Of a stretch of DNA of 64,000 nucleotides, positions 9,366 to 58,372 are shown piece after piece. Location of the stretch: NCBI GenBank assembly GCA_036172245.1, contig JAYWIR010000081.1, forward strand, positions 186,001 to 250,000, given 5' to 3'. The notes under the pieces are model-generated. The model was given only the letters and a program-made list of their open reading frames with translations. It did no database searches and was not told the origin of the DNA. Position 1 is the first letter of the stretch. Each line of letters opens with the position of its first letter. Source of the stretch: Raillietiella orientalis. Lineage: Eukaryota. The translations under genes were made by a program, and so were the position numbers.

Positions 9366-9366
9366 A

Positions 9367-18360: not shown

Positions 18361-18935
18361 GATCGCCGTCTCGACTTTTTGGAGGCAGCCGCACCACGCT
18401 TCCGCTGCGGAAAAGTCCCCCAACGGCACACCAAGGTACTAAATGCACCTCGCAGTGGGGATCCCCAAACGGACCCAGTCCTGCTGCCCTGCCTACGCCG
18501 CACCAACTGGCACCACCGACGACTTCGCCCTGTTCACCTGCAGTCCGGTCCAGCGGCTGAGCAGGTCGAAGAAATCTCCGACCGCCTTCGCCGGGGAGGA
18601 CATAGGTAACAGGAGCAGAAGATCGTTGGCATAAACACTTACGGCGAGTGTGCCGCGGCATGAGCTCGGCAAGAGGGCCAAAGTCACCCTGTACGCTCTC
18701 AGCAATAACTCGAAGTAGGTGCTAAAGAGCAGGAGAACGAGGCTATCGCCCTGCCGCATGCCCCGCCCCACCGGCACGCCATACACCCGTTGACTGCTGG
18801 AAACGATCGAAATTATCGCGTTCCGCCAGCAGGAGCGCAGGTAGGAAATCAAGGAGGGTGGGAAGCCCATGCGACCCAGGAGCCCCAAGAGGAGTTCCTG
18901 GTCTACACAGTCGAACGCCTTGTGCGCTCCAGCGT

Positions 18936-20681: not shown

Positions 20682-20695
20682 TCTTCCCAGCAGTA

Positions 20696-24463: not shown

Positions 24464-24494
24464 AATAAACGCCCCGGCGAAATCCGGGTGAAAA
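24464..24494 (+). terminator. Shared LINE 3'-terminal motif (poly(A) signal, GC hairpin, short A tail); representative of 12 copies
   Basis: AATAAACGCCCCGGCGAAATCCGGGTGAAAA; other copies on + at 27359, 34599, 49095, 54427, 57798 and on - at 9367, 16101, 25747, 37311, 40491, 58373. Confidence 0.8.
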
Positions 24495-30224: not shown

Positions 30225-30380
30225 TTACTGCGAGCTCCTCCGCCGCTTTCTCGAAGGCCGCGTCTTCGCCAGCGGCGACCGTTGCCGCGGGCTGCTCCGC
30301 GACCTTATCGAGCGCGGAGTCATCGCTGACGGCGATCGTTGCCGCGGGCTCCTCCGCGACTTTATCGAGCGCGCCGTCCT
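30225..30380 (-). repeat. 57-bp coding tandem repeat (about 2.7 copies) in family B ORF1
   Basis: DGALDKVAEEPAATIAVSD / DSALDKVAEQPAATVAAGE / DAAFEKAAEELA; only a single unit in the other B copies. Confidence 0.75.
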
Positions 30381-31689: not shown

Positions 31690-34627
31690 AGGAAATTTGG
31701 ATGAAGGGCCCGCAACGAAAGGGCGTATTTGCACGCCCGTCGTTTCGCAAGGACCCCTGATCTCCGTCGCTTGACGGAATACAAAGCCGGGGCTGTGCGT
31801 CAGACATGGCAAACCGGACCGCTTAGCGTGCTGGAGGATTTGGACCAGGAACAGTCGGAGCCAGCTTCGATCCGTCGCCTCTTGCGCGGATTTTTCTCCT
31901 CTCTTTGCGGGAGGGCTCCTGCCGAGTGGGACGCTTCGCGGCGTTTGCTTCCAGATGGAGCCCCGACCATAGATGAGGAAGAGAAAGAAAGTCTATATGA
32001 GCCTTTTACAATCGGGAAAATCATCAGGTAGATTAAAAGCCTCAAAAAACGTAAGGCGCCAGGGGAGGACGGCCTGCCGGCGGAGTTCTTTCAGTGCTTC
32101 GTCGCAGAGCTGACCCCCATGGTGCTCAAATTGACATCGCTGATCCGAGACGAAGGCGATGTTCCTTCCTCGTTTCGGTCAGGCAGGGTGAGGCTCCTCC
32201 CAATGGGAAGGGACCTTAGGAAATAAAGCAGCTGGCTTCTGATCACGATAGTGAACACGGACGCCAAGCTGCTGACCGGACTGTGGGCAGCGCGACTGGG
32301 ACAGGTTCCGAGCTGACAGCTTCGTCAGCTCGGAACAGACGGACGCTGTTCCCGGGAGAAGCATGGAAGCGAACCTGTTCTTCGCCAGCACATGGTTTAA
32401 TCTACAATACGAAGAAAAAGAGGAGAAAAGAGAACAAAATAACGACAAACCTGATTTCGGAACGCCAGCGCGGCAAACAAAGGACTGCAGGGAAGGGAAG
32501 GGGGCTTTGGCGGTCGCAGTCGATTTACACAAAGCGTTCGATTGCGTGGACCAGGAACTCCTTCTGTAGCTCCTGAATTGCATGGGCTTTCCGAACATCT
32601 TATTGGCTTACCTGCGCGCCTGCTGTCGAAATGCGATCATTTACTTATGTTTCAGATTACAGCATGTGTTCGGGCTACCGGTGAGGCGCGTCATCCGGCA
32701 GGGCGACAGCCTCAGTCCCCTACTCTTCAGCACCTATTTCGAACTGGTGCTGAGAGCATACAGGGTGACATTGGCTGCCCTGCCGAGCTCGTGTCCAGGT
32801 ACACCGGCAGTGTCGGCGTACGCTGACGATGTTTTGCTCCTGCTGCCCATGTCCGCCCCGGCTTCGGCAGTCGAAGATTTCTTCGACTTGTTGAACCGTG
32901 GGACAGGACCACAGGTGAACAGGACGAAGACATCGCTGGTTGCGCTTGGTGCTACGTGGGCAGGACGACCTGATTGGATCCGCCTGAAGATCCCCACGGA
33001 CAGGTACTTAAAGTACCTCGGCGTTCCGTTGGGGGACTTCTGTCAGTCGGAAGCCTGGTCAGATCGTCTCCAAGAGGTGAAGTCAGCGATCGGCCCGTTC
33101 CTGGAAGGCAAGCTTCACTTGCCGGAACGGGCCGCGGTGTGAAACGCGTTCGGGGCCCCCCTCCTTCGCCCCCTGCTTTTTGTTTGCCCCGTACCCCGTG
33201 AATTAAGAAAAAGAACGAAGGACCTCCTACGTATTGCCCTGTGAGGCGACAAGAGGCCCCGTGTGCCTCTAAAAGACTTGTGCGCTCCACGCCGGGACGG
33301 AGGTCTCAGCGTAGTGACGATGGAGCGAATGGAAACACAGCTGCGGTGGGGCACTCTAGCCATCGCAGCGAAAATGTGGAGCACCCCTTGGTGCGTTCCA
33401 GCCCACCTTCTTTCCAGACGTGTGTCCGGGACTGAATGACTCGCGTCTTTTCTGCTGTGCCCCGGCCGGAAAAAAAGAAGGTGCGTACTTCTCCTGGGAC
33501 GCATGGCCACTCTGGCAAAGGAGAAAGCGTGGATGACCTGCAGCCCCGCCAACTCTAGCGCATGGCTGGAAGAAACAGTTGGAACGTGGGCAAAGATAAA
33601 CAATATCAGTGAAGAATCCTGCAACGGCCTGCGTACCGGCATCTACACCCGCTGCACGCTGCGGAACATGAACGTGTGTCCCGCCAGAAGAACTTGGGCG
33701 GAGACGACCCCACTGGCCACGGCGTTACCCTTCCTACGGAGGGCGCTCCAAAATATCCGGAATCCTAGATGGCATGTCTCCTGCGGATAGCGGGCAAAGA
33801 GAAGGATCTGACTGGGTGGACCATGAAAGATCTGGTTGAAACCTCGACCCCAAGAGTTAACCCGCATACACTACGGAGATGGGGCGAGCTGCTTGGCATC
33901 CCGATGTATGACCTAGAGTCGCCCCCGACGTTCATTGATTCATTTATCCTCCCCCTAAAGTGGCAGGAAACGGCGCTGTTGTTGTTGCACTGAAGTCTTC
34001 CTTGCAACGGGCGCCGCCAACACTGGACGTGGGGGTATGTTCATCCGATCTGTGCAGTGTACAGGGAGAAGGAATCACTCCCCCATCTGTTAGTGGACTG
34101 CGCTGCCCTCCGGCCCTTGTGGGAACGTCTTTCAACGAACCTTTCAGTGCCCGTAGGCAGCACCATCAGAGACGTTATGAGGCTCCTCTTCCTGCGACAC
34201 GCCCTGACACCAGCCTCAGCCCTGGCAGCACTTTGCTGCCTCCGAGGGATTGTGACCGCGTGGAGCGCAGCCAACAGAGGAAGCAGCGACAGGGATCTCA
34301 TCGTACACGGTAGTCGATGCCTGCGAATCGCGATCGGCTGGTCCCATCTGAGAACAATGAAGAGGGATCTCGAGGGCATCCTCGAAAGGATGGTCTCTTC
34401 CTCCAGCGGGCTTTGATCCCTTCCCGGCCCTCCAAATAATTTCTTTTCGTTTATTTCTTTTATTTTTCTTTTCGTTTTTACCCTCTACCCTCTTCTCTGC
34501 CGAGGAGAGTCAAGACGGCCTGCGAGCCGGCTTTCCGGCAGGTCCAAAGGACTATTGGCCGTAGCGGAACCTCGTTATGCGAAAACAAAGTGTTTAGGAA
34601 TAAACGCTTCGGCGTGACCGGGGAAAA
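31690..34627 (+). mobile_element. LINE family G, ORF2 from linker to 3' end, degenerate
   Basis: RAYLHARRFARTPD, KAPGEDG, DLHKAFD, RQGDSLSP, YADD, ends DLEGILERMVSSSSGL*; 3' motif 34599-34627. Confidence 0.88.
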
Positions 34628-36136
34628 CTTACCCGTGTCCAGTGATGACGGCGTGAATTGCAGGGCAGTCCATAGTGCAACAGCAGCAGCGCCTAATCCT
34701 GCCATTTTAGGGGGAGGATTCTGGTTTCTGTTATTACTGGGGGCCACTTGAGCTCATCAGTCATGATGCCGAGCAGCTCGCCCCATTTTTTGAGTCCTTG
34801 CGGAAGGACGCTATGTTGAGGCGTCCACAAGCTGTCGCACTGTCCAACCGCTCTTTAGGTTTTCGCTGCCTACGATACGATAAGAGACTTGCCACCTCGG
34901 CGTCCGGCTGCTCACGATTGTCCTACGTAGGAAGGGTAGCACCGTCGCCAGGCAAGTCGCCTCTTCCCACGTGCTTCTGGCGGGACACTTCACGATCTCG
35001 CGTAGAGTGCAGCGGGCGTATCGGCCGCGTCGCAGGCTAGTCCATGTCACGTAACTCATCTTATTCACTACAGCCCACGTGCCAACTGTTTCATTCAGCC
35101 ATGCGCTGGAGTTGACGGGGCGGCAGATCATCCAAGCATTCTCCCTCGCCATGGTGGCTACTTGTCCCAGCAGATGTCCGAATCTTCTTGTCTTCCTTCC
35201 ACGACATTAAAGAAGCGATGCGAGTCCTTCCGTTCCGGATACACGTGTGGCGAGTGAGGGACAGGGAGCACACCAGGGAGTGCTCCACATCTTGGCTGCG
35301 ATCGCCAAGGATCGCAATCGCAGCTGAATTTCCATGCGCTCCAGCATCAGGAGGCCTAGTTCACCATCACGACGCGGAGAGCACAAGTATATCAAAGGGA
35401 CTCGGGGCCTCCCCTTGCCCTAAAGGGCGATGCGCAGGAGGTCGTTGGTCCTCTTTTTTAATTCTTTGAGGACGGGGCAAACAAAAAGTAGGGGGCGAAG
35501 GATGGGAGCCCCTAAAGCGTTCCATACTGCGGCCCGTTCCGGCAAGTAAAACTTGCCGTTTAGGAACGGGCGAATCGCCAAATCCACCTTCTGAAGATCG
35601 CCTGACCATGCTTCTGACGGGCAGTAGTCCTCTAGAGGAACGCCAAGGTACTTCAGATGTGTGTCAGTCGGGATCCCCAGGCGGATCCAGTCAGGCCGTC
35701 CTACCCACGTCGCTCCAGCTGTCAACATCGACGAAATTGCTCTGTTGACCCGTAGCCCTGTCCCAAGGCTTAGCAAGTCGGAGAAATATTCGACTGCGGT
35801 TGCAGGGGAGGAAATTGGGAGCAGTAGCAGGAGATCGTCGGCATATGCAGCCACGGCAGGCGTACCGGGACATGAGCTTGGCAAGGCAGCCAAAGTCATC
35901 CTGTATGCTCTCAGCACCAACTTCAAATAGGTGATAAAGTGGAGGGGACTGAGGCTATCGCCCTTTTGAATCCCGCGGCGCACCGGCACGCAGTACACGC
36001 TCTGCCCTCTCAAAGATATGTTTGTTAACGCGGCTCATCAGCAGGAGCGCAGGTACGCCGTTAATGTAGGAGGGAAGCCCATACGATGCAGAAGCTCCAG
36101 CAGGAGCTCCTGGTCCACGCAGTCGAACTCCTTTTG
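34628..36136 (-). pseudogene. LINE ORF2 fragment (KAFD to HWTR), bounded by an A insertion and a G insertion
   Basis: ORF 35420..36013 (QKGDSLSP, AYADD, KYLG); LHYGLPCNSRRHHWTRV at the left end. Confidence 0.85.
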
Positions 36137-40490: not shown

Positions 40491-43479
40491 TTTGCCACCC
40501 GGATATGCGGGGCATTTATTATTTTAATTTTTTACAAAAGATAGATAATAAAGTCTTTAAAAAGATGTTTTCTGTGGAAAAACGCTGCGTTCTCCCAACT
40601 TGCTCGACATGTCAGTTGCCGGTGCATAGACCGGTTAGGTCCATTACTGAGGCGATGGGAAGGGAAAACTAGAACAAAAACAAACATTAAGAGACATAAC
40701 GGGGAGGGAAATAGTTATATGGGGAGAAGGGGGGGCAGGGAAGGGATTACTGGGAGCCTGGGCCGATCCTCCGCATCCTGTTGAGGATGCAGTCAAGTTC
40801 GGTTTTTATTGTGAAAGGTAGACGCCATCTTGTCGCCGTCCCTAAAGAGATCGTCGTCCAGTGGATGGCGTCCCTGCATCTTGGGCCTCTTCTTCTGGCG
40901 TGCCACCTTTGCACAATGCCGCGCACGCAGCAGAGGACTGCTAGAGACGCAGCGGGGCGCACTACGTCAGGCAGAAAGAGGCGACGGTAAATTTCATTAG
41001 GGTCGCCTACAGGAAGATGGAGGATTGGGGCGATTCTACTCCAGAGTCCATTCAGGGCAACACGCTCGAGGGTGAGATGCGGGAAGGTTTCTCTTTCTCC
41101 GCACTCGACACAGCGCGCATCCACACTCCCCAGTGTCCAGTGAGACAGGCGTGCTCTGCTTAACAGTCCCCAGTGAAGAAATAGCAACGCCGTCTCCTGC
41201 CACTTCAACGGAAGTGTGCCGCAATCCGAACACGCTGGGGGCCACTTCACCTCCTCCGGAGGTATCGCGAGGAGCACTTCCCAGCGCGCAAGTCCGTGAA
41301 GAGGGACGCTCGGGGTTGCACCGTCCGTGAGCTCCCGAGTCGTCCACGCCTTTAAAGGTTTTTTCGAGCCTCGGATGAGGCAGGACACTTCCCACGATGC
41401 CCGCTGGTTGCTGCTCCTAGTGTTTTTTAGGGAGGACAGAACGGGGGCCAGGGGGCTGAAAGGAGCTCACAGAAATTTCCGGGGCGTGTTGATAATATCC
41501 TGCAGCGGCTTTCGAGCGTACGGTCTTCGTCGTAGGCAGTTGTATTCCGCCTCGCTCGTGCCGTTGATCTTCGCCCACGCGGAAGCTGACTCCTGAAGCC
41601 GGGCAGTACAGTTCGCGGGGAGGCAGGAGATCAAGCTATTCTCCCTCTTCAGGGCGACCATTTAGCGAAATTTGGGCCACAGTTGGAGAGGATGCGCTAA
41701 TAGGCCACGAGGATCAAGGACAATTTTTCGCAGCCGGTCGCTCTTCTGGCGAGGAGCCGAGCCGGAACGCACCATGGCGTCATCCATAAGCTAGACGCAA
41801 GGGCTAACTTCCGAAGTGTTTTTTGCAGTTGGATGCGCTCCAACGTAAGGAGGCTTAAGCCACCATCCCTGCGTGGAGCGCACAAGTCTTTCCATCGGAC
41901 TCGCGACCTCGCTGTGCCCCAAATGGAAGTCCTCAAGAGGGCTTTGGTTCGTCTCTGTATGATGGGAGGGGCGGGGCGAACAAAAAGTAAGGGGCGAAGC
42001 AGGAAGGCCGCGAACGCGTTCCGCACCGTGGCCCGCCCCTGCAAGTAAAAGCTGCCGTTCCGGAACGGGCCGATCGCCAACTCCACCTTTTGGAGACGGT
42101 CGGACGAGGCTTTTGCAACGCGGAAGTCCCCCAACGGAACGCCAAGTTACTTGAAGCACCTGCCCGTGAGGATCCCCAAGCGGATCCAGTGCGGCCGTCA
42201 GGCCCATAGCCTATTGTTGAAAAGTAGTGGTGATGTTGGAACGATGGAAGATTTCTCACTGTTCACATCGAGGCCTGTCCCGTGGCGCAGCATCTCAAAG
42301 AAATCTTCGAGCGCCGACGCCGGGTGGACCCAAGGAGCAGGAGCAGAAGATCGTCGGCGTAGGCCGACACGGCAGGCGAGCCGAAACATGAGCTTGGCAG
42401 GGTTGCCAGAGTCTTCCTGTATGCTCTCAGCACCAGCTCGAAGTAGATGCTGAAGAGCATGGGGCTCAGACTGTCACCCTACCTTATGCTACGCCGAACA
42501 GGCACGCCGTACGCGTGCCGGCCGCTAAAAGAGATGTTCATTAAAGCGAAGCGCCAGAAGGAGCGCAGGTAAGCCCGGAAGACGGCCGGGAATCCCAAGC
42601 GTTCCAGGAGCTACAGAAGGAGTTCCCGGTCGACGCAATCGAACGCTTTACGGAGGTCGACTGCGACCGCAAGGGCATTGCGCGCGGCTCTTCCATGAAG
42701 AGCGTCCCCTCGCCGGTCAGAGGAGAATCCAGGATTCTCTTGACCTCCCCGGTCTTGCCATTGTTGCAACTGCCACCATGTACTGGCGAGGAACAGGTTG
42801 GCCTCCATGCTTCGTCCGGGAACAGCGTATGTCTGCTCCGGACTCACCACGGTTTCCGCCACCCGTGCCAGTCGCTCAGCCCAAAGCTTGGCAAGCAGCT
42901 TCGCATTTGCATTTACTTCTGTGATGGGACACCAGTTGCCTACGTTGCGATTGTCTCCTCCTTTCGGCAGGAGACGTACTCTAGCTGACTGGAACGATTT
43001 GGGGACGTCCCCTTGTTCTCGGATCAGCATGCAAAGTCAATGCACCAGGGGGGCCAGCTCCGCCACGAAGCCTTGGTAAAACTCCGCAGGCAGACGGTCT
43101 TCTGCTGCTGCTTTCCTCTTTCCGAGCTTTCCGATGGCGGAGACGATCTCCGCCATAGAGAAAGGCTCCTCGAGTTGATGTGTCTGCTACTCCTCTAGCG
43201 CGAAGGCGCCTCGCGGAAGCAAGCGCTGCGCCACGGCGCGCTCTTTTGTTTTACGCTCGTACAAGGAGGAGTGATAGACCCGCAGGATGCAATTTATTCT
43301 CGCCAGAGCTGAGCATATCTGGCCTTGGGCGTCTAGAAAGCTGGCCCACCCGGATTGCCAGTTCTGTTGCTCAGCCCCACCTTTATACTCCGCCAGGCGT
43401 CGAACGTCGGGAGTCCTAGATTAAAGACGGGCTTGGTGGTATGCCCGGTCGTTCCTCCGCCCTTCGCCGAAACCCTTGG
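40491..43479 (-). mobile_element. LINE family F, ORF2 linker to 3' end, degenerate
   Basis: KGFGEGRRNDRAY, DLRKAFD, AYADD, CVECGERETFPHL; 3' motif 40491-40520. Confidence 0.86.
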
Positions 43480-46400
43480 CGAGTGGACGTGTGTTTCCTT
43501 CGCTCCCGAGTGAGTCGACAGGAAGCGGTTTTTTCTTGTGTTGTTTGGTGTGGAACATCGTTGGTGTCCGATGGCAGCGATGCCTGAGGACACCACGATG
43601 GAGGTAGGTGTGGGGGAGGCTTGCCCACCCCCACAGCCTACAGAATCAGGGGCGTCCGCCCCGGAATCGCCCTCGCCGCTCAAGGCGAGGAGCTGGAGCG
43701 CCATGGTGGCCGCGCCGAGCGCGGAAACCATGGCCGAGATGGCGGCCTACCGGGCAGCTGGGTACAAGCCCAGCTTGGTTTACCAGGTAGGCAATCTCTT
43801 TGAAGGGCGAATTGCACGCGCTTTTTCGAAAGCGCTGCAGAACGCCAACGTGTTGGAAAAGGACCTTGATGGTCTATCCGTGCTCAACGGGGGTCAGCGC
43901 GTCGAATTGTCTGCAAGGACATCACCTTGGCGCAAAGATTGTTAACCACCCCGCTGAACGTGAACGCACGCAAGATCCTACCAGTCACGATGATCCGCTC
44001 CGTAGTGGTCCATCTGACAGGGATCACCAGCCGCATGACGCGGTCTGCGGTTGGTGATCAGTTAAGAAAGTATGGAGATGTTCACCCGCTATGGCCAAAG
44101 GCCACAATCTTCGATGGCTACGATAGCATTTTCGGAGGTCAGGCCGCCGCGCGCGTGGAGTTGAAGCAGAGTGGGCTTCCCCACAAACTGGAGGTCAATG
44201 GCGAAGTCGTAGACCTCTGGTACGTGGGGAAACCCCGCTTTTGTGGCTACTGCAATGCAGTAGGACACTTGCGCAAGAGGTGCCCGAACATTGTGTGCCA
44301 CTTATGCGGGGAGAGGGGCCACGTACGCCGCGTATGCCCTAAACGCCCCACTCCGGTGCCGCCTGCTGCAAAGAAAGCACAGAAAAAACGCGGTAAACTG
44401 GTCGAAAGACCAAAAAGAGATACTGGCCGGCAGCAGCCGCTAGCCCCTGTTCCTCCCACACAAGCGTCGGAAGAAAAACCCTCCGAAGACGCGGGAGTCG
44501 AAGACGGCTGGCAGCTGGTCAAGGCCAGAAAGGAGAAAAAGGTGCCCCCCGCGTAACCCGCGAAAGCGGTAAAAAAGACAGCCGGCAAGGCGAAAAAACC
44601 TGGGCCGCGCTCTAAGACCATGCGAGAGTGTACGGTAGCACTGGAGCGCATAGCCGTTCCCGAGATTGCCACCCAGGGCGACGAGCCTTCCCTCGCCGTT
44701 TGCGCCGCGCCCGAGGTTCGCCACGGCGAACCCTCTGTTTACACAGAGGGTGTGCCGCGCGAAAGAGCGACGGTCGAAGCCGAGGACGGCTCGTTTGCTC
44801 AGAAGCCGGAGGAGCTCGCGGCCACGCTAGCCGAGCGTGGGAACCCCTCGCGCAAGGCCGTGCGAAGGCCGGCACCCGCGAAAAAGGCCCCCACAGGTGA
44901 GTCGGATCTGGAGGCCGGAAGTGCATCCTCCTCCTCGGAGGCACCCCCCAGGAAGTCGGGACGCAAGTTTCAGAAACCCAGGAGGCGCCTCCCCTCCACC
45001 AGCGAGGAGGACAAGCAGGAAGGTAGCGGTAGCGTGGGAATCCCGGAGGGGGAACTCCCACGCTCGGAAACCGTCGAGCCGGCCACCACCATGGAGGAGG
45101 GTGAGCAGGGGGGCGAAGTCCTGCCCGCAGTCGCCGAGCCTGAACAGCCCGCCCCCATGGAGGAGGGCCAACAGGTAGGCGCACACCACCTGAGGGTGAC
45201 CCGCTCGACGCGCCGTTACACATGGAGGAGGGGGACCAGGTGCATGCAGCGTCTGTCCCTCCTCCTCCACCTAGCGTCCCGCCCCAACAGCTGGCGGACG
45301 CCGCATCGCCATCTTCCCAGGAGTAACACCTGGGATCGCCAGTCGCCGTCGGATCCGCGCAGCCTGTTGGAACGTCAACGGGCTGCGCGGCGACAGTAAC
45401 AGGCGAGATACGGATGACACCCTGCGTGAGCTCGACCTGGCCCTGCTGCAGGAGATCCACGTGATCACCGCGGCAGACGCTCAGGAGATAGAGACGATCG
45501 CGGGAAGTCGGTTGTATTGGCGGTGCGGCCTCCGCAACACCTGCGGGGTCGCGTTCTTCGTGAAGCCGGCCATCGACGCTGCCGTGAAAGGCGTGCGCTT
45601 CGATGACGACGGTCGGATCGGTCAGCTGATTCTCAGCTGGTCCGACTCGATCGAACTGATCGTCACGAATGTGTACGCCCCCAGCGGAAAACAGGGATAC
45701 AGCGACCGTACCAGGCTGCTGGAATCTTTGAAGCGCGACTGGCTGGCGGACACGAACGTGCGGAAGGCTCACCTGATAGCGGGATATTTGAATCTCCGTC
45801 TGCTAACAGGTGAGCCAGAAACACAAGAGAACGCGAAGGACGAGTTGTGCGCCGCCATGCGTGCGCGCAACTTGTTCGCGGGTGAGAGGGGAATGGATCG
45901 CAGCATCGACCACGTCTTCCTCGACGCTGACCTGTGTTCACGGGTCGGCAAACGGGGGAGGGTTGCGTCGACGTAGTCGGACCATTGCCGGTTAATTTTC
46001 GAGATGCGGCCTTGTGACAAGGGACTGCCATCCAGGGATTGGAGTCTGCCGTGGGACTGGACACGACTCTCAGGTGCGAAGGAATTCCTTCGCGAATACC
46101 TGAGAGGCCTCACGCTCCGGAATCTCCAGGACTGGGACCTTTTTAAGGAATCGGTCCGCGAGTTCTGTGAGCAGTTCCCCCTGGATCGCCTGCCCCCGGA
46201 TTCGGCGAGGGTCCTCACAACCCTCGGGCCTATTTACAGGCTCGTAGGTACGAAAGAACCCCTAATGTCCGTCGCCTGGCCGAGTACCGCGCCGGGGCCG
46301 AACGCCAAGCCTGGCAATACGGGTCGGCTAGCTTGCTGGACGACCAGGGCCGGGAATGTTCGTTTCCGTCGTCGGTAAGGCATCTCGTGCGGAGTTTCTA

Positions 46401-49125
46401 TTCCTCCCTTTACGCCAAGGAGCCCCCGGATCCAGACGCCTCTCGACGCTTGCTTCCGGATGGCGCTTTGGCAATAGGGGAGGAGGAGATGGAAAGCCTC
46501 GACGAGCCTGTTACCACTGGCGAAATTCTAGCCGGTATCAAAAGGCTCAAGAAGCGTTAATTCAAGGGGAAGACGGCTTGCCCGCGGAGTTCTTTCAGAG
46601 CTTCGCGGAAGAGGTGGCACCCCTGCTGCTTAAGTTGATCAGGCTGATCCGAGACGGAGGCGATGTTCCCGCCTCGTTTCGGTCCGCCAGAGTGTGGCTC
46701 CTTCCGAAAGGGGGAGACCTCAGGGATTTAAAGAACTGGCGTCCGATAACGATCGTGGATACGGATGCCAAGTTGATCGCAGGGCTATGGGCTTCGCGTC
46801 TGGGGCAGGTGGCAGAATCCGTAATTAGCACGGAGCAGACTTATGCTGTTCCCGGGCGAAGTATGGATGCCAACCTCTTCTTCTGAAGCACATGGGTGCA
46901 CCTGCTGAGAAGAGAAAAGAAAGGGATAGGGAAAGTCGGCAACTCCACATTGGGGCCGCCAGCCGGGCTGAGAAGCGACCCCCGGGCGGGAAAGGGTGCC
47001 CTAGAGCTCGCAGTCGAACTCCACATGGCGTTCGACTGTGTAGACTAGGAACTTCTCTCGGAGCTCCTGGGTCGCATGGGCTTTCCACTCTCCCTGATTT
47101 CCCACCTGCGCTCTTGCTGCCGGAATGCGATCATTACCGTCTCTTTCAGCGGTCAAAAGTTGTATGGCGTGCCGGTGCGGCGGGGCATAAGGCAGGGAGA
47201 TAGCCTCAGCCACCTGCTCTTCAGCACCTACTTTGAGTTTGTGCTGAGAGCGTACAGGGTGACTTTGGCCCCATTGCCGAGCTCGTGCCCCGGCGCGCCC
47301 GCCGTAGCAGCGTACGGCGACGATCTTCTGCTCTTGTTGTCAATGTCCACCCCGGCAAAGGCGGTCGGAGACTTCTTCGATCTGCTCAGCCGCGGGACCG
47401 GACTGCAGGTTAACAGGGCGAAGTCGTCGGTTGTGCCAATAGGTGCGGCGTGGGCAGGGCAGCAGGACTGGGTCCGTCTGGGGATACCCACGGGGAGGTG
47501 CTTCAAATACCTTGGTGTGCCGTTGGGGGACTACTCCCCTGCGGAAGCGTGGTCCAGACGCCTCCAAAAAGTCGAGACGTGGATCGGCCCGTTCCTGGAA
47601 GGCAAGTTTCACTTGCCGGAACGGGCCGCGGTTTGGAACGCCTTCGCGGCCCTCATCCTCCGCCCCTTGCTTTTTGTTTGCCCCCCCACCGTGGAATCGA
47701 AGAAGAGGACGAAGGACCTCCTCCGTATCGCCCTTTGGAGCAAAGGGAGGCCCCGAGTCCCACTGAAGGACTTGTGCGCTCCGCGTCGGGACGGCGGTCT
47801 TGGCCTCCTGACGCTGGAACGCGTGGAGAAGCAGCTGCGATGGCGAACCCTCGCCACCGCAGCGAAGATGTCGAGCACCCCTTGGTGCACTCCGGCCCGC
47901 CTTCTGGCCAGATGTGTGTCCCGGTGCGATGGACTCGCGTCTTTTCTTCTGAGCCCTGGCCGGAAGATGCGGAGATGCGGCCTACTGCTCGGGCGCATGG
48001 CAACATTGGCCAAGGAGAACAGCTGGCTGGTTTGCTGCCCCGCCAACTCCCCCGCCTGGCTGGAGGAGAATATTGGAACGTGGGCTGTAGTTAACCAGAG
48101 AAGCCACGAGACGTGGAATCGTCTCCGATGCAGCCATTTCGCCCGCTGCACGCTGCGGAATCTCCTGGAGAGTCCAGCAAGATGCACGTGGGCAGAGACG
48201 ACCTGCCTAGCTACGGCGCTGCCCTTCCTGAGGAGGGCACTTCACAGCTCACGGACGCCAAGCTGGCAAGTCTCCTGCTGCATCGAGGGACGCGAGAGGT
48301 TGATCAGCGGCTGCACAGCAGCAGAACTGGGCGACGCCACGACCCCGAGCGTCCAGCCGCGAGGATTATTAAGATGGCGCAAGCTGCTCGCCATCCCCAG
48401 GGATGAGCTGAAGTGGTCCCCGGTGATGAAAGAATCCAGGATCCTGCCCCTCAAGTGGCAAGAGTCGGCGTTGCTTTTGTTGCACTGGGGTCTACCCTGC
48501 AACGCGCGCCGCTTCCACTGGACGAGGGGAGCTGTGAATCCTGCGTGTGCCAAGTGCGAGGAGCGGGAGTCGCTTCTCCACCTTATTATGTATTGTGCTG
48601 CCCTCCGACCCCTTTGGGAACGGTTCGGGACGACCCTCGGGCTCCCTACGGGCAGCACCCCCAGAGACGTTCTTCGGCCCCTCTTCGTGAAGGACGCACT
48701 GCAGCCAGCAGCAGCCATCGCAGCCTTGTGCTGCGTCCGTGGCATCGTGGCGGCATGGAGCGACGCCTGCAACGAAGGAGTGGGTTTGCAGGCGAGGGAT
48801 GTCATCCCGTATGCCCAACGCTTCTTGCGAAGAGCTGCCGGATGGCTTCAACTGGGGAATATGCAGACTGACCTCCAGGGCTTCGTTCGACAGAAGGGCC
48901 TTCCCCACAGCGACCAGTGATCCCTTCCCTGCCCTCCAACTTCTTTTTGTTTGTTTCTTTTTATTTTACTTTTTGTCTTATCCCCATCCCCCTTCGCTGT
49001 CGGGGAGTGCCACGCCGGGCTGCGTCCCGGTGTCCCGACAGGTCGCGTGTTTACGGCCGTTGTGGGGTCTCGTACCACGCATGTAGAGTTTACAAATAAA
49101 CGCCCCGGGCGTACCCGGGTGGCAA
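43480..49125 (+). mobile_element. LINE family B, full-length (about 5.65 kb), flanked by a ~15-bp TSD
   Basis: cgccgaaacccttgg (43465-43479) / cgccgaatcccttgg (49126-49140); ORF1 43571-45326, ORF2 about 45326-48920; 3' motif 49095-49125. Confidence 0.92.
47076..48920 (+). pseudogene. Longest open part (614 aa) of family B ORF2: RT C-terminal half plus Cys/His finger
   Basis: RQGDSLS, AYGDD (YADD variant), FKYLG, CAKCEERESLLHLIMYC; upstream ORF2 has stops. Confidence 0.9.
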
Positions 49126-49140
49126 CGCCGAATCCCTTGG

Positions 49141-52100
49141 AGAGTGGACGTGGGTTTCCTTCGCTCCCCAGTGAGTCGACAGGAAGAGGTTTTTTTCTTG
49201 TGTTGTTTGGTGTGGAACATCGTTGGTGTCCGATGGCAGCGATGCCTGAGGACACCACGATGATGGTAGGTGTAGGGTGTACATGCCCAACCCCACAGCC
49301 TACAGAATCAGGGGCGTGCGCCCCGGAAACGGCCTTGCTGCCCAAGGCGAGGAGCTGGAGCGCCATGGTGGCCGCGCCGAGCGCGGAAACCGTAGCCGAG
49401 ATGGCGACCTACCGGGCAGCTGGCTACAAGCCCAGCTTGGTGTACCAGGTAGGCCCCTTATTTGACGGAAAAACGGCACGCGCGTTTTCGAAAGCGCTGC
49501 AAAACGCCGGAGTAAGAGAACATGACCTTGACGGTTTCTCCGTTCTCAGCGGAGGTCAGCGAGTCGAGGTGGTGGGCAATGAGATCACCTTGGCTCAGAC
49601 TCTGATCACCAACCCGTTGAACGTCGAAGGCCGCAAGATCTTGCCGGTGACGATGGACCGCTCCGTGGTGGTCCATCTCACTGGAATAACGAGCCGTATC
49701 ACTCGCTCTGCGGTAGCACAAGAACTACAAAAGTTCGGCGAGGTGCACGCGCTGTGGCCTAAGCCAACAATCTTTGAAGGCTTCAATAGGTATTTCGGAG
49801 GCCAGGCTGCAGCGCGGGTAACCGTGAGTAAGGACTGTGGGCTTCTTCACAAGCTGGAGGTCGCGCAAGAGAGCGTGGACCTCTGGTACGTGGGAAAGCC
49901 CCGGTATTGGGGCTACTGCGATACCATAGGACACCTTCGCAAGAGGTGTCCTAACATCCAATGCCACATGTGCGGGGAGAAGGGCCACGTTCGACGTGTG
50001 CGCCCAAAACGCCCCGCCCAGGTTCCTCCTGCGACGAAAAAGGCGCAGGGGAATCGCACACTAAATGTCACAAGACCTAAGGCGGACGCTGGCCGGCTGA
50101 AGCTTCCAGATCCTTAACCTCCAAAAGAAAAGACGGAGGAGAAACCTTCCCAAGAGGCCGAAGGTGAAGAGGGCTGGCAACATGTAGCAGCCAGAAAAAA
50201 CATTAAAGCTCCTTGAAAGGAAAAGAAAGAGAAGCCGGCCGGTAAGGTAAAAAAAACCCGGGCCGCGTTCGAAAACCGTACGCGAGTGCACGGTGGCACT
50301 GGAACGTTCCGGAAGATGCCACCCAATGCGACGAGCCTCCCCTTGCCGTTTCCCTCGCGCACGAAGTACGCGACGGAGAACCCTCTGTGCAAACAGAGGG
50401 TGAGCCGCGCGACGCGCCGGTCGACACCGAGGACGCCGCGTTCGCCAAGCGGCGGAGGAGCTCGCGGCCACGCTGGCGGAGCGTGGGAACCCCTCGCGCA
50501 AGGCCGTGCGAAGGCCGGCACCCGCGAAAAAGGCCCCCACAGGTGAGTTGTACCTGGGAGCCGGAAGTGCATCCTCCTCCTCGGAGGCACCCCCCAGGAA
50601 GTCGGGACGCTAGTCCCAGAAACCCAGGAGACGCCTCCCTTCCACCAGCGAGGAGGAGAAGCAGGAAGCTAGCGGTAGCGTGGGAATCCCGGAGGGGGAA
50701 CTCCCACGCTCGCAAGCCGTCGAACCGGCCACCCCCATGGAAGAGGGTGAGCAGGGGGGCGAAGTCCTCCCTGCAGTCGCCGAGCCTGAACAGCCCGCCC
50801 CCATGGAGGAGAGCCAACAGGTAGGCGCGACCCCACCTAAGGGTGACCCGCTCGACGCGCCGTTACCCATGGAGGAGGGGGACAAGGTGCACGCAGCGCC
50901 TGACCCTCCTCCTCCACCTAGCCTCCCGCCGCAACAGGTGGCGGACGCCGCATCGCCATCTTCCCAGGAGTAACACCTGGGATCGCCAGTCGCCGTCGGA
51001 TTCGCGCCGCCTGTTGGAACGTCAACGGGCAGCGCGACGACGGTAACAGGAGAGATACGGCCGACGGCCTGCGTGAGCTCGACCTGGCGCTGCTGCAGGA
51101 GATCCACGTGATCACCGCGGCAGACGCCCAGGAGATCGAGGCGATCGCGGAAGGTCGGTTGTATTGGCGGTGCGGCCTCCGCAACATCTGCAGGGTCGCG
51201 TTCTCCGTGAAGCCGGCCACCGATGCTGCCGTGAAGGGCGTGCGCTTCGATGACGACGGTCGGGTCGGTCAGCTGATTCTCAGCTGGTCCAACTCGATGG
51301 AATTGATCGTCACGAATGTGTACGCCCCCAGCGGGAAACAGGGATACAGCGACCGCACCAGGCTGCTGGAATCCATGAAGCGCGACTGGCTGGCGGACAC
51401 GAGCGTGCGGAAGGCTCACCTGATAGCGGGAGATTTCAATCGAGTGCGGACGTGTTTTTCTTCGCTCTCGTCCCCGTGCTTTCATCCGCTTCACCTTGGC
51501 GTCGTACATTTTGACGACGATGTCGACCCAACTTGAAGCTACTGAAGTTGGAGGAACAGCATCCGGATCTGCAATCGCGGAGCCGACGGCCGCCTCCACT
51601 TCGACTTTCTCGCCAATGGAGAGGAGTTTTGCTGACGTTGCTGCCACAGCAGCCGTCAAACGGAAACCACTCGACGAGTCGGAGTTGCGGGCATACGTAG
51701 TCCAAGGCTATAGACCTGCTCTCCGATATAAGGTGAGTGGTTTTCTTTCTGCGCGCGACGGGAATCAGTTCAACGATGAACTGAGCCGTGTTGGCGTGCG
51801 GGAGGAGGACCTCCTCGCCATTATGCCCGTGAAGGATATGGGCTATTTCAAGGTGGGTTGCAAATACGCTGCACTTGTGCAACGCTTGCTGCGCACCCCG
51901 TTGTCGATACGTGGACAGAAGGTCTTCCCGTCCGCCATGGACGACTCATTTGTGGCGGAGATTTTCGACATCGAGTTGGAAATCTCCGATATTGATACTC
52001 GGAACGCGTTGGCAAAATTCGCCGCGGTCTATGCGCTGTGGAGGGTGCGTAGCAACCTCAAGGACTTCCCGTCCATACACAGCGGAGTCGCTGGAGTCCA

Positions 52101-55100
52101 GCTTACAATGCCGGACCGCCGTCTGCTGCCCACCAAACTACAGGTTGAAGACACGGTCGTTCACCTGTATTTCGTGGGCAAAGTTAGAACGTGCGAGCAA
52201 TGCGGAAAGGAGGGGCATTGTTTGGATAAATGCCCCTTTGGAAAATACTGTGATTGCAAACTAGCCGGGCACCAATTGAAAAATTGCCCGGATGCTTTGG
52301 GAAAAAAGGCAGCCGCGGAACTCCATGTTAACAAACAAAGCGCGGATAAAAAGAAAAAATCTTCGAAAAACCTGGAGACGTCGCGGCAGAAATTGCGCAA
52401 AAACGCAAAGCGGAATGTCGCCCCAAAGCAGCAGGAAACCACTCACGCGAAGCCCTGCGCGCTTCCTCTCGCGGCAGGGGAGCCGCAAAAGAAAGAGTGC
52501 GGGGAATCCGGGGCAATGGTAAGTCCCCCTAGGCGCAATAGCTGTCCTTCCCAAGCACGCCGGGCTCTCTCGGAGTTCGAGCAACCGGCGGGGACGCCAA
52601 TGGACAACGGCGGTAAGGACACTTCCAGTACCGTCAGATCCATTCCTTCACCTTCTGCAAAGGCTGAGAAGCCTATATTGGGTAAGAAGAGTTGTGCCGT
52701 GTCGACTTCGAAAGTCGGCAAAAAAAAATCTGCGTCGCGATCCAACACCGCGTAAGCGGAGAAAAATCACACGCCGTCGCAATCGGAGAGCAAGCTCTCG
52801 ACTGGCGCGGATGCCATGCCAACGAAGGGATTAAAAGCCCTTCCGAAGGCAGCGTCCATGACGAGCGTGTCGAAGTCATCCAAAGTGCTCACGTCCAAAG
52901 ACGCGGATGGCTTCAAAGATGGCAATGCAGCACAATCTCCATTTACGGCGCCACGCGAAGTGAGGAACCGTAATGAAGTAAAGAAGACTTCAGCATAGGT
53001 CCCTCGTGCAACTGCGCGTGAGCACGCTGAAAACCTGGCTTTGCTGCGCCCAACTTGCAATAGGGGAGGAGGAGATGGAAAGCCTCTACGAGCCTTTTAC
53101 CACCGTTGAAATTCTCGCCGGTATCAAAAGGCTCAAGAGGCGTAAAGCTCCAGGGGAAGACGGCTTGCCCGCGGAGTTCTTTCAGAGCTTCGCGGAAGAG
53201 CTGGAACCCCTGCTGCTTAAGTTGATCAGGCTGATCTGAGACGAAGGCGATGTTCCAGCCTCGTTTCGGTCAGCCAGAGTGAGTCTCCTTTCGTAAGGGG
53301 GAGACCTGAGGGATCTAAAGAACTGGCGTCCGATCACGATAGTAAATACGGACGCCAAGTTCATCGCAGGGCTATGGACTTCGCGTCTGGGGCAGGTGGC
53401 AGAATCCGTAATTAGCCCGGAGCAGACTTATGCTGTTCCCGGGCGAAGTATGGATGCCAACCTCTTCTTCGCAAGCACATGGGTGCACCTGCAGAGAAGA
53501 GAAAAGAAAGGGATAGGGAAAGTCGGCAACCCCACATTGGGGCCGCCAGCCGGGCTGGGAAGGGACCCCCGGGCGGGGCAGGGGGCCCTAGCGCTCGCAG
53601 TCGATCTCCACAAGGCGTTCGACTGTGTAGACCAGGAACTCCTCTTGGAGCTCCTGGGTCGCATGGGCTTCCCACCCTCCCTGATTTCCTACCTGCGCTC
53701 TTGCTGGCGGAATAGGACGATAACCGTCTCTTTCAGTGGACAGAAGGTGTATGGCGTGCCGATGCGGCGGGGCATAAGGCAGGGCGATAGCCTCAGCCCT
53801 CTGCTCTTTAACACCTACTTTGAGTTGGTGCTCAGAGCGTACAGGGTGACTTTGGTCCCCTTGCTTAGCTCGTGCCCCGGCACGCCCGCCGTAGCAGCGT
53901 ACGCCGACGATCTTCTGCTCTTGTTGCTAATTTCCACCCCGTCAAACGCGGTCGGAGACTTCTTCGATCTGCTCAGCAGCGGGACCGGACTCAGCGGGAC
54001 TGCTCAGCACCAAGAGGTGATCGGCAAAGCATCTTCCTATATGGAAGGAGCCGCCAGATGGCCTCAATTGACCGAGGATACGAAAAGGGATCTCGCTAGC
54101 ATACGCCGACGGTTTACAGACGCTACCCAACAGCGCACCCGGTGATCCTTACCCCTCGCCCCCTTGATATGTTTTTTTTTTTTTTTTACTTCCGCCCTAT
54201 TAGGCTCCGAAACATTTTAAGTGCTCTCTATTTGAATCCCCGTGAGTACGGAGCTTCACCAAGGACCGGTTACCCCTCTCTCCAGATTTAGATTTTTGTT
54301 TGTTATCCCTCTACACCCTCAGTGTTGTTGGAAGCGGTTTGTTCACCAGGCCTGTGCGCCAATAAATTCTCTGTGCTCCTTGTCGTTTTTTTGGTTACAG
54401 ACATGGTCTTTGACCGGCTTATTTTCAATAAACGTCCAGGCGTGACCTCGTGAATAATTTCAATCTCCGCCTGCTAACAGGTGAGCCAGCAACACAAGAG
54501 AACGCGATGATCGAGTTGTGCGCCGCCATGCGTGCGCGCAACTTGTTCGCGGGTAAGAGGGGAATGGTCCGCAGCATCGACCACGTCTTCGTCGACGCTG
54601 ACCTGTGTTCACGGGTCGGCAAACGGGAGAGGGTTGCGTCGACGTTGTCGGACCATTCCCGGTTAATGTTCGAGATGCGGCCTCGCGACAAAGGACCGCC
54701 ATCCAGAAATTGGCGTCTGCCGGGGGACTGGACGCGACTATCAGGTGCGAAGGAACACCTTCGCGAATACCTGAGAGGCGTCACGCTCCGGAATCTCCAG
54801 GACTGCGACCTTTTTAAGGAATCGGTCCGCGAGTTCTGTGAGCAGTTCCCCCTGGATCGCCTGCCCCCCGGATTCGGCGAGGGTGCTCGCAACCATCGGG
54901 CCTATTTACAGGCTCGTAGGTACGAGTAAACCCCTAATGTTCGTCGCCTGGCCGAGTACCGCGCCGTGGCCGAACGCCAAGCCTGGCAATCCGGGTCGGC
55001 CAGCTTGCTGGACGACCAGGGCCGGGAATGTTCGTCCCCGGCGTCGGTACGGCATCTCGTGCGGAGTTTTTATTCCTCCCTTTACGCCAGGGAGCCCCCG

Positions 55101-57828
55101 GATCGAAACGCCTCTCGGCGCTTGCTTCCGGATGGTGCCACGGCAATAGGGGAGGAGGAGTCCTTAAGCCTCGATGAGCCTTCTACCACCGGCAAAATTC
55201 TCGGCGGTATCAGAAGGCTCAAGAGGCGGAAAGCTCCAGGGTAAGACGGCTTGCCTGCAAAGTTCTTTCAGAGCTTCGCGGAAGAGCTGGCACCCCTGCT
55301 GCTTAAGTTGATAATGTTGATCCGAGACGAAGGCGATGTTCTCGCCTAGTTTCGATCAGCCAGAGTGAGGTTCATTCCGGAAGGGGGAGACCTTAGAAAT
55401 TTGAACAACTGGCGTCCGTTCACGATTGTGAATACGGACGCCAAGTTGGTTGTCAGGCTATAGGCATCGCTTTAGGGCAGATGGCAGAATCCATAATTAG
55501 CCCGGAGCAGACATATGCTGTTTCCGGGCGAAGTATGGATGCCAACCTCTTCTTCGCGAGCACATGGATGCACACCCAGAGATGTCAGAGGGTGAGGAAG
55601 GGAAAGGAAAAATCGGCAACCCTACTTTGGGGCCGCCAGCAGGGAAGGGAAGGGACTCCAGTAAGGAAAAGAAGCCGTAGCACTCGCAGTCAGTCTCCAT
55701 AAAGCGTTCGACTGTGTTGAACAGGAGCTTTTGTTTGAGCTCCTTGGTCGCAGGGGCTTCTCACCCTCTTTAATCACCCAGCTGCGCTCTTGATATCGGA
55801 ATGCGATTATCTGCATCTTTCTCAGCAGACAAAAGGTATATGGCGTGCCGGTGCGGCGGTGCATAAGCCCCGCCGCACCGGCAGAGCAGGGGACTCAGGC
55901 GAAAGCCTGAGTCCCCTGCTCTTCAGCACCTACTTTGAGTTGGTGCTGAGAGCACATAGGGTGACTTTGGCCTCTTTGCCGAGCTCGTGCCCCGGCACGC
56001 CCGCCGCAGAAGCCTATGCTAACGTTCTTCTGCTCCTCTTACCTATGTCCACCCCGGCAAAGGCGGTCGGAGACTTCTTCGATCTGCTCAGCCGTGGGAC
56101 CGGACTGCAGGTCAACAGGGCGAAGTCGTCGGTGGTGCCAGTAGGTGCGGCGTGGGCAGGGCAGCAGGACTGGGTCCGTCTGGGGATACCCACGGCGAGG
56201 TGCCTCAAGTACCTTGGTGTGCCGTTGGGTGACTACTACCCTGCGAAAGCGTGGTCCAGCTGTCTTCAAAAAGTTGAGACAGCGATCGGCCCGTTCCTGG
56301 AAGGCAAGTTTCACTTGCCGGAACGGGCCGCGGTTTGGAACGCCTTCGCGGCCTTCATCTTTCGCCCCTTGCTTTTTATTGGCCCCGCCCCAAGAGTAGT
56401 TAAAAAGAGGACGAAGGACCTCCTCTGCATCGCCCTTTGGGGCAAGAAGAGGCCCCGAGTCCCTCTGCAGGACTTGTGCGCTCCGCGTCGGGACGGCGGC
56501 CTTGACCTCCTGACGCTGGAGCGGGTGGAAATCCAGCTGCGGTGGCGAACCCTCGCCATCGCAGCGAAGATGTGGAGCACCCCTTGGTGCGTTCCAGCCC
56601 ACCACCTCGCCAGGCGTGTGTCTTCATGCGAAGGACTCGCGTCGTTTCTTCTGTGCCCTGGCCGGAAGATCCGAAGATGCGGCCTTATGCTCGGACGCAT
56701 AGGAACCTTGGCGAAGACGAACGGTCGGATGGTTTGTGGCCCCGCCAACTCCTCCGCCTGGTTATAGGAGTCTGCTGGCACATGATCTAAGCTGCACCGG
56801 AGAAGTGAAAACCACATGAACTGCCTGCGAATCGGCCCATACGCCAACCGCACCCTGCGGGAAATACTGGAATTTCCCCGGAGCCGCAGGTGGGCGTTGA
56901 CGACTCCCCTTGCTACGGCGATGCCCTACCTCCTGAGGGCGCTTCAGGATCGCCAGAAGCAGAGGTGGCAAGTCTCCTGCCGGATCGCAGGCAGGGAGAA
57001 GATGTTAAGCGGATGGACCACAGGAGAACTGGCGGCCGCCACGACTTAGAGCGTCCAGCCGCGAGGATTAATGAGATGGAGCAAGCTGCTCGCCATCCCT
57101 ACGGTTGTGGTGAAGTGGCTCCCGGTACTTAAGGAAACCATGATCCTGCCCTCTGAGTGGCAAAAGTCGGCGTTGCCACTGCTGCACTGGGGTTTACCCT
57201 GCAACCCACGCCGCTTCCACTGCACAATGGGAGTTGTGGATCCTGAGTGTGTAAGGTGCGGAGAGGGGGAATTGCTCTCTCACCTTATTGTGGACTGTGC
57301 TGCCCTCCGACCCCTCTGAGAACGATTCGGGACGACCCTCGGGCTCCCTTCGGGCAGCACTCCCAGAGACGTTCTTCAACCTGTCTTCGTGAAGGACGCA
57401 CTGCACCTAGCCGCAGCCATCGCAACCTTGTGCTGCGTCCGTGGCATCGTGGCGGCATAAGCGACGCCAACAACGAAGGAGTGGTTCAACACGCAAGAGA
57501 TGTCATCCCATACGCCCAACGCTTTTTGCGGAGAGCTGCCGGATGGCACAACTGGGAAATATGCGGATGGACCTCGAGGGCTTCCTTCAACGTATGATTC
57601 CTCCTCACAGCGAATAGTAATCCCTTCCCTCCCCTCCAAATTCTTTTTGTTTGTTCATTTTTTCTTCTTCTTTTTCTTTTATCCTCATCCCATTTTCCTG
57701 CTAAGGAACGCTACGCCGGGCAGCTTGCCGGCTTTCCGGCAGGTCCCGTGCGTATGCCCGTGAGCTGGGCCTTGTACCGCGTATGCTGGGCTTTTTAAAT
57801 AAACGCCCCGGGCGTACCCGGGTGTAAA
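49141..57828 (+). mobile_element. LINE family B, second head-to-tail copy, interrupted by family C
   Basis: 5' UTR nearly identical to 43480 onward; ORF1 to 50973; APE to AGDFN at 51441, resumes at 54457; RT 55790..56767; 3' motif 57798-57828. Confidence 0.9.
51442..54456 (+). mobile_element. LINE family C with perfect 9-bp TSD; chimeric interior (ORF1 51496 to about 53035, B-type RT piece about 53050-53990, C 3' end)
   Basis: atttcaatc at 51433-51441 and 54457-54465; ORF 51496..52755 matches 27346..29199; 3' motif 54427-54456. Confidence 0.88.
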
Positions 57829-58372
57829 CCTCCAAGGCAAGAAAGAAGGCCGTAAGGCATTCGGCCTCCCCTCAGGGGTCCCCCACTTCCGACTCCGAGG
57901 TGGAGGCCGGAAACGCAGCCACCGTTTCTACGGCACCCCGCAAGAAGGCTGGACGTAAGTCCACAAAGCCGAATAATATCCTTCCCCTTTACGAAGAGGA
58001 AGAGATGCTTGCCGGAAGCGAAGCTGACATGCGCGTTGAAACTCCCGGGCCCCTTCGCACGGGAGACTCTCACGCGCAGACACGGACGGGATGGAGGGGG
58101 TAGAGACCGAACAAATGCTCCAAATGCCTGAGAAGGCAAAAAACCCACATGGACATCCCGCCCGACTCGCAAGAGTCGGGCTCCCCACACCTTAATCTTC
58201 CCAGCAAAAATGCCGCGTATCTCCTCCCGCCGTCGTCTGCGCATCGCCGTTTGGAACGTGAACGGCAAGACAGACGCCGGCAAGAGACGAGACATGGCCT
58301 CCCTTCTGGAATTCTTCGATCTTGCGCTGCTGCAGGAGATCCACATGATCTCCGCAGAACAAGCGCAAGACA
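57829..58372 (+). mobile_element. LINE family A fragment: ORF1 C-terminus and ORF2 start, interrupted by family E
   Basis: Homologous to about 20313-20860; MPRISSRRRLRIAVWNVNG...LQEIHMISAEQAQDI then junction. Confidence 0.85.

Follow-up and report, generated by a model that had tools for sequence, protein, structure and literature searches.

Two consecutive copies of a long interspersed nuclear element (LINE) in Raillietiella orientalis (assembly GCA_036172245.1, contig JAYWIR010000081.1, positions 186,001 to 250,000) are each preceded by the same 15 nucleotides, which raises the question of where this 15-mer comes from and how the two copies, both of a family that we call B, came to lie head to tail. 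The whole 64-kb stretch, here called the window, is a nest of degenerate LINEs with an endonuclease of the apurinic/apyrimidinic (APE) type, and has a G+C content of ca. 57%. In blastn comparisons with the first B copy (B1) and tblastn comparisons with pieces of its open reading frames (ORFs), LINE fragments covered nearly all of the window, on both strands, with no intact element among them and a longest stop-free frame of 640 amino acids. Site-specific LINEs are known mainly for targets in ribosomal DNA (rDNA), small RNA genes, microsatellites, telomeres and one DNA transposon. The best explanation for the locus is that family B is a sequence-specific APE-type LINE with an L1/Tx1-like architecture, whose target is the antisense strand of the ...GFGEG codons in the linker between the endonuclease (EN) and reverse transcriptase (RT) of other LINE families. 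We further consider it rather probable that the 15-mer is a target-site duplication that was re-used for a second B insertion, family B being a sequence-specific LINE that homes to the antisense EN-RT linker.

The 15-mer and the head-to-tail pair of family B

The array and its left flank are composed as follows, T1 and T2 being the two copies of the 15-mer.

40492..43464, minus strand: host LINE v, 3' part of ORF2, from just past the linker GFG codons through the RT to the 3' tail (tblastn map, B-equivalent 2713-5414)
43465..43479, plus strand: T1, the 15-mer CGCCGAAACCCTTGG, which on the opposite strand reads as host codons (P)KGFG; putatively the left-hand repeat of a target-site duplication around B1
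43480..49125, plus strand: B1, a full-length but degenerate family B LINE, with the 5' motif GAGTGGACGTG; one extra base (C, 43480) at the junction
49126..49140, plus strand: T2, the 15-mer CGCCGAATCCCTTGG, between the B1 3' tail and the B2 5' end; 14/15 identical to T1
49141..51441, plus strand: B2, part 1 (B positions 1-2315), which breaks off at the EN 'GDFN' codons; one extra base (A, 49141) at the junction
54457..57828, plus strand: B2, part 2 (B positions 2307 to the 3' end), with the tail GGGTGTAAA; at 57829 comes fragment X, without a third 15-mer

The 15-mer, CGCCGAAWCCCTTGG, has two exact matches in the 64 kb, at 43465-43479 (A variant) and 49126-49140 (T variant). A third match, at 14767, has two mismatches and an unrelated RT context; in a shuffled-sequence control, the mean was 0.38 matches with up to two mismatches. 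An earlier reading made by a model from the letters and their translations (hereafter, the sequence-only reading) had claimed that the 15-mer precedes both consecutive B copies, and this is what we found: one base (C or A) follows each exact match and then GAGTGGACGTG, with which B1 (43481) and B2 (49142) start. Upstream of the 15-mers the two loci show no relationship, host ...CCGCCCTT preceding one and the B1 tail ...GGGTGGCAA the other, so the repeat is sharply bounded, to within about 2 nt. T2 starts directly after the B1 tail, and B1 thus bears a 14/15-identical direct repeat on both sides, of which the left copy runs into the host and the right copy into B2. The latter is itself split by a nested element of 3,015 nt at 51442-54456.

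B1 is laid out as an ORF1 with a CCHC knuckle, an APE endonuclease, the linker, the RT and a C-terminal Cys/His region. Its 3' end consists of AATAAAC, a hairpin and GGGTGGCAA, the tail pattern of family B being AATAAAC-hairpin-GGGTGNNAA. All families in the window share such an end (AATAAAC, a short hairpin, GGGTG and four A-rich bases, with no long poly(A)), and this 3' motif has nine matches in the window against 0.87 expected; common to all families is also a 5' terminus, G(A/C)GTG(C)GGACGTG. Examples of the shared termini are the 3' ends at 49095-49125 and 24464-24494 and the 5' ends at 43481-43491 and 18932-18942. None of the four B-like 5' ends in the window is truncated; of the two B 3' ends, one is followed by the 15-mer and the other by fragment X.

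The 15-mer is host sequence, as indicated both by its reading frame and by its alignment to linker codons. The reverse complement of T1 reads (P)KGFG in frame with ORF2 of host v (KGFGEGRRNDRAYHQARL...), and the minus-strand frame of KGFGEGRRNDRAYHQARL runs on, across one stop, into the remainder of this ORF2. Likewise, when nine linker regions were aligned, the 15-mer aligned with the (L)PxGFG codons in the six that are uninterrupted (B1, B2, B3, l, g and y). Host v forms the left flank of the B array and has its own 3' tail, GGGTGGCAA, at 40500-40492. The possibility that the sequence-only reading had set against itself, that the 15-mer is simply the constant 5' terminus of B, does not apply in the window, where the 15-mer is host coding sequence and two further B-like copies, B3 and j, start without it. 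For this last reason it also appears very unlikely that the 15-mer is a leader co-transcribed in B RNA from donors resident in linkers, with the spacer brought in by B2. Co-transcription with the upstream target is discussed for R1 in passages of PMC2718515, and the one-base difference between T2 and T1 would suit such an origin; yet T2 lies exactly at the 3' end of B1, so that the same site would have been hit regardless and B would still be site-specific.

The two copies differ from each other very unevenly. B1 and B2 are 83.8% identical overall, with values per 400 nt that range from 68% to 93.5%: 68-74% over B positions 401-1200 and 89-93.5% over positions 1201-2800 (chi-square for heterogeneity 264, df 13). 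Decaying local duplicates should diverge evenly, and this unevenness therefore points to two source elements and two insertions. We accordingly regard as quite unlikely that a single B insertion with a 15-bp duplication was followed by a local duplication, through unequal exchange or replication slippage between T copies or their neighbours, and no second insertion. Its product, L-T-B-T-B, would look identical to what we observe, and unequal exchange has been invoked for the expansion of the R1 array of D. melanogaster (bioRxiv 10.1101/158386, in part of that work); moreover, later gene conversion could blur the argument from divergence. Against it, besides that argument, a repeat of 15 bp lends itself poorly to exchange.

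Re-use of a duplicated target is our preferred reading because B1 is flanked by the repeat, because the 5' junction of B2 (T, one nucleotide and GAGTGGACGTG) has the same form as that of B1, and because B1 and B2 diverge unevenly. The B endonuclease would nick the priming strand at ...GCCCTT^CGCCGAA... (B orientation), and the second strand would be cut about 15 nt downstream, these nick positions being presumed ones; specificity would presumably reside in the endonuclease. A complete insertion would then read L-T-B-T-R, where L and R are the host flanks and T stands for the duplicated 15 bp. Neither the host sequence upstream nor the T at the 5' side would be damaged, which leaves the site open to further B elements, and the outcome would be a head-to-tail pair, L-T-B1-T-B2, by the mechanism described for the R1 tandems of rDNA. 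In this model B1 would be the younger copy, and since it does not carry a nested element like that of B2, it is probably, on this slight indication, the later insertion of the two.

EN-RT linkers of other LINEs as the insertion site

B-like elements adjoin host linkers at two further places in the window.

29254..31682, minus strand: B3, part 1, a diverged B-like copy with a full-length 5' end, GAGAGGACGTG (31682..31672), that adjoins host q
31683..34633, plus strand: host q (family G), from the linker to the 3' end, antisense to B3; its linker reads P*RKFG*RARNERAYL
16107..17135, minus strand: host i (family G, with an internal deletion); its linker stops at ...RNKRAYL, and it is 82% identical to q over 16234-16854
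17136..18359, plus strand: j, a diverged B-like copy represented by its 5' 1.2 kb, with the 5' end GAAAGGACGTG

B3 resumes at 25746..24495 and at 18924..18361, after nested insertions. In the RT region, the identity matrix and tree group the elements into a B clade (B1, B2, B3, z and b), a related group (q, r and h), family L (l and g), v alone on its own branch, t and y, and the distant element e. Hosts q and i are both of family G; host v (40492-43479, minus strand) is not of their family and, on its separate branch, is 66% identical to q, and to B1, in this region.

Three B-like 5' ends, all full length, adjoin the antisense linker of a host within a span of 28 nt, in two host families, and the fourth adjoins the 15-mer spacer; this agrees with the proposal of the sequence-only reading that family B targets the EN-RT linker. 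The diverged copies that it had placed at about 31686 (minus strand) and at 17136 (plus strand) do adjoin the same linker (FG*RARNERAYL and RNKRAYL, respectively), the former at 31682. It had also estimated a shift of 20-25 nt for the junction at 17136, for which we measured 28 nt relative to that at 31682. The q/B3 junction lies ca. 4-5 nt deeper in the host than the 5' junction of B1, and B3 is preceded by the version of the site proper to q and not by a v-type 15-mer. The i/j junction falls 28 nt short of the q/B3 junction, and j lacks any equivalent of the 15-mer, which is in effect a target-site deletion. For the INDEPENDENCE of the three junctions (v, q and i), we calculate a chance of about 6e-6 that two further random hits, in the same orientation, fall within 28 nt of a 5.6-kb element. 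In all, three of the nine linker sites in the window are occupied (v, q and i). The heptamer GCCCTTC, at the presumed nick, is common to v and q and differs in the six empty linkers, a weak pointer given that it comes from two hosts. Antisense, site-specific targeting of the EN-RT linker by family B is thus well supported.

The junctions do not descend from a single composite that was copied: likeness is 82% over 621 nt between hosts i and q and ca. 59-75% between their guests j and B3, v is of another family, and the junctions are offset by 28 nt. On the same identities we rejected a segmental duplication of a composite unit of host and B. As judged from these sequence comparisons, the three independent linker junctions would be separate insertion events. 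Twin-priming (5' inversion) was rejected as well, because the 'inverted' partner belongs to another family and is itself full length.

Alternatively, the recurrent junctions might result from recombination between diverged LINE copies or from mis-assembly in a nest of repeats. The window does contain clear rearrangements (18359/18361 and 1459/1460), and the assembly could not be checked with reads, the contigs of the sequencing runs being too fragmentary. Nevertheless, a complete 5' terminus or 3' tail meets the same host nucleotide across families and orientations, and families L and o show complete insertions with duplications (see below), which makes such an origin highly improbable.

The absent host flank and the joint between B2 and X

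The proposal that a target-site duplication was re-used for the second insertion stands as regards the repeats flanking B1, the form of the B2 junction and the uneven divergence; it is not matched by a host EN side or by a third 15-mer, and several observations weigh against it. All the evidence comes from one 64-kb window of degenerate copies, in which the longest ORF has 640 amino acids. No host EN-side flank (R) follows the B 3' ends, and the tblastn map shows no orphan linker-upstream halves in the window. The 15-mer follows just one of the two B 3' ends, and the tail of B2 meets X within ORF1, where the microhomology amounts to only 2-3 nt. The 3' parts of B3 and j were lost at the rearrangement 18359/18361, together with the sequence that would show a duplication; there are no intact q-type linkers in the window, so that the q-type equivalent of T is putative, and the shared GCCCTTC is known from two hosts. 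The sequencing runs add little: one of the three listed contains part of the stretch (0.24 of words), its contigs at 80% likeness amount to 458 short pieces, and 10 of 318 loose ends were listed. These contigs are too short to span the junctions, and none bridged them among the pieces listed (10 of 484). One run contig (depth 2, with a 21-nt side) links 49137 to 51440 via CTTT and is a candidate tail-T-head junction, too weak to count.

The sequence that occupies the 3' flank of B2 is a piece of another LINE.

57829..58371, plus strand: X, a fragment of an L-family LINE (ORF1 end and EN start), 85% identical to 20311-20859 of element l

X lies in sense orientation and is interrupted at 58372 by the 3' end of the minus-strand LINE y; no continuation of X was found in the window. 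In LINE y itself (58372-62300 and beyond, minus strand), the layout of ORF2 is near-complete, and its 3' end, AATGAAC...AGTGAAA, lies antisense in the EN start of X. That X is a later, 5'-truncated insertion at the boundary of B2 and T is unsupported, the target of family L not being there and the far end of X falling outside what can be read.

This joint may reflect a break and misrepair at the regenerated nick site, or off-target priming of B2 in X with its 5' end resolved at the 15-mer downstream of B1. The second would change the history of the whole array: B1 would be a canonical insertion with T on both sides, and B2, primed at an off-target nick in X, would have joined the downstream T with deletion of the host EN side, in a LINE-mediated rearrangement. 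This fits the complete tail of B2, which meets X at a non-target site through 2-3 nt of microhomology, and would account for the missing third T and the missing R. We nonetheless hold it unlikely, since the 5' junction of B2 has the same form as the canonical one of B1 and the cDNA of B2 would have had to find T; nothing supports this history directly.

The joints 1459/1460 (at a GDFN site) and 57828/57829 (where the third 15-mer would be expected) both sit exactly at presumed nick sites and have an unrelated LINE fragment on the other side; they may reflect breakage at regenerated targets. Another rearranged region, 14953-36131, is mirror-like (h-i-j followed by k...p-q-r), with a host, a guest of family G and a guest of family B per side. 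The mirror joint, 18359/18361, brings B position 1221 of j next to position 4106 of B3. Likeness between the arms is just 70-82%, and they are therefore two independent nests that a rearrangement fused and no recent fold-back.

Relatives of family B and other LINE families inserted into LINEs

The sequence-only reading had described the pair as an R1-type tandem. Its layout and, by analogy with what parts of PMC2718515 describe, its mechanism conform to this, whereas the endonuclease and RT look L1/Tx1-like. Fragments of B1 matched the Pfam families Exo_endo_phos (29.2 bits) and RVT_1 (30.8 bits), both above the cut-offs, as well as zf-CCHC in ORF1. Among 1.84 billion representatives, the B RT (47049-48920) had a single close relative, with 64% identity, the remainder showing ca. 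30% or less; this relative is an unnamed protein on a 2.9-kb contig. Ten top hits of the RT were looked up, and the named ones include 'Transposon TX1 ...' and 'LINE-1 ORF2', which are automatic names. When hits were scanned for domains, four out of five contained Exo_endo_phos and RVT_1, three of these four also zf-RVT, and the atlas neighbours of the B RT carry RVT_1 and zf-RVT.

Comparisons with solved structures point in the same direction. The best matches of the B EN are L1 endonucleases, and none of its 29 hits is R1, R1Bm or TRAS1, although endonuclease chains of R1Bm and TRAS1 are present in the PDB; those of the B RT are an unnamed reverse-transcriptase-like protein and L1 ORF2p. Thus, the B elements look L1/Tx1-like and not of the R1 clade, at the level of sequence and structure matches; at ca. 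30% identity to the nearest relatives, any placement of B in a clade is tentative. A scan of metagenome contigs for the exact pattern of the B 5' terminus gave no matches, and the seven loci related to the 64% protein relative are all distant (22-35% identity, plus one stretch of 28 residues at 61%), with none usable.

R1 is the closest parallel for the arrangement. Passages of PMC2718515 describe head-to-tail R1 copies that are separated by a 14-bp duplication and arise when a new copy inserts into the duplication lying 5' of a resident one, as well as a rigid bottom-strand cut and a flexible top-strand cut. In D. melanogaster, the R1 array has a 33-nt spacer that McGurk and Barbash attribute to double insertion, in the part of their work considered here (bioRxiv 10.1101/158386). 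As far as these sources go, family B resembles R1 in being an APE-type LINE with a fixed target, a putative duplication of fixed length and a tandem spaced by exactly that duplication; R1 itself has a rigid 3' junction and a flexible 5' one. They differ in that R1 targets rDNA with a 14-bp spacer and B the antisense ORF2 linker of other LINEs with a 15-bp spacer, and in that the B EN matches L1 endonucleases best, in a search of solved structures.

The Tx1 clade (Tx1L, Keno, Mutsu and others) offers a second comparison, as it comprises sequence-specific APE LINEs of the L1 group, and some of the nearest relatives of B are automatically named 'Transposon TX1 ... protein' and contain APE, RVT_1 and zf-RVT. 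Tx1L targets the DNA transposon Tx1D; in B, by contrast, the target is coding sequence in LINEs of other families, with several families in the window targeting each other. Transposons are among the known targets of target-specific non-long-terminal-repeat elements, Tx1 and R1 being the APE clades concerned, according to part of PMC4640811. By analogy, then, the mechanism of B would be that of the sequence-specific APE LINEs of the R1/Tx1 type. Finally, Zepp and ZeppL, which form LINE clusters in green algae, behave similarly in that they cluster by insertion into existing copies, a comparison made from their description only; none of the ten B RT hits looked up bears the name Zepp. Unlike Zepp arrays, which are described as made mostly of 5'-truncated 3' ends, all four B-like copies have complete 5' ends, and junctions in the window fall at single, family-specific ORF2 nucleotides.

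Such insertions were not limited to family B. Element l of family L (18925-24494) is inserted antisense in B3 at the RT KAFD codons, with a 14-bp duplication, TCGAACGCCTT(G/A)TG, at 18911-18924 and 24495-24508. The same junction recurs at two further L-type 5' ends, ca. 36131-36150 (s, plus strand) and ca. 380-405 (a, minus strand), and the three 5' junctions are nearly identical (...GTCGAAC.CCTT.TG(C)GCTCCAG.GTGGA.GTG). The 3' flank of element g (9366-9383, minus strand) also resembles the KAFD site of family L.

Both B2 and B3 carry a family o element, in sense, at their EN GDFN codons, and the copy in B2 is the element that splits B2.

51442..54456, plus strand: nested element o in B2, in sense, with a 9-bp duplication, ATTTCAATC, at 51433-51441 and 54457-54465 and the 3' motif at 54427

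The insertion in B2 thus spans 51433-54465 and that in B3 25738-29262, with 9-bp duplications ATTTCAATC and ATTTTAATC, respectively. The copies differ inside: that in B2, of ca. 3 kb, has a B-like RT piece (53039-54095), and that in B3, of 3.5 kb, contains a further nested element, n (ca. 26142-27385). Their shared segment, mostly o, is 92% alike compared to 83-88% for the flanking B2 and B3 sequence, which suggests that the two copies are separate insertions. The longest open frame of the window, at 27346-29268 (minus strand), is the ORF1-like 5' part of element o and had no Pfam match at E 0.01.

In family G, the 3' tails of i (16107, minus strand) and q (34633, plus strand) meet the same nucleotide, CT[TC][AC]CCCG[TC]GTCCAGTG, and the target is the C-terminal zinc-region codons of hosts h and r, in antisense. 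In all, site-specific insertion of LINEs into LINEs, with duplications of 9-15 bp, is a property of this community of elements, and the complete insertions with duplications in other families support the interpretation of the 15-mer of B as a target-site duplication.

More tentatively, as a proposal that we would not yet call probable, the window may hold a guild of related LINE lineages, four or more in number, each of which homes to a different conserved motif-coding site in ORF2 of the rest. The targets would be split as follows: EN GDFN for o, in sense and with 9-bp duplications; linker GFG for B, antisense and with 15 bp; RT KAFD for L, antisense and with 14 bp; and the C-terminal zinc-region codons for G, antisense. 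Keyword searches of the open-access literature found no description of several LINE families targeting one another's distinct ORF2 motifs, an absence that is not proof. If such a guild exists, LINE coding sequence would be a partitioned 'safe-harbour', as rDNA is split among R1, R2 and other R elements; LINE islands would be self-growing, and there are hints, from the joints 57828/57829 and 1459/1460, that repeated cutting of regenerated targets also drives rearrangement.

If a LINE targets a conserved stretch of coding sequence in other LINEs, this would account at the nucleotide level for how islands made only of LINEs grow without harm to genes, and such islands resemble the centromere-associated clusters of Zepp and ZeppL; the case would be stronger if several lineages do split the target. 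The families would, moreover, make up a natural series of related APE endonucleases, each with its own defined target, useful for studying how endonuclease specificity evolves. A further family-specific target may lie in the ORF1 region of element u (40236-40511), to which the 3' tail of host v, GGGTGGCAA (40492-40520, minus strand), the same as that of B1, is joined in antisense.

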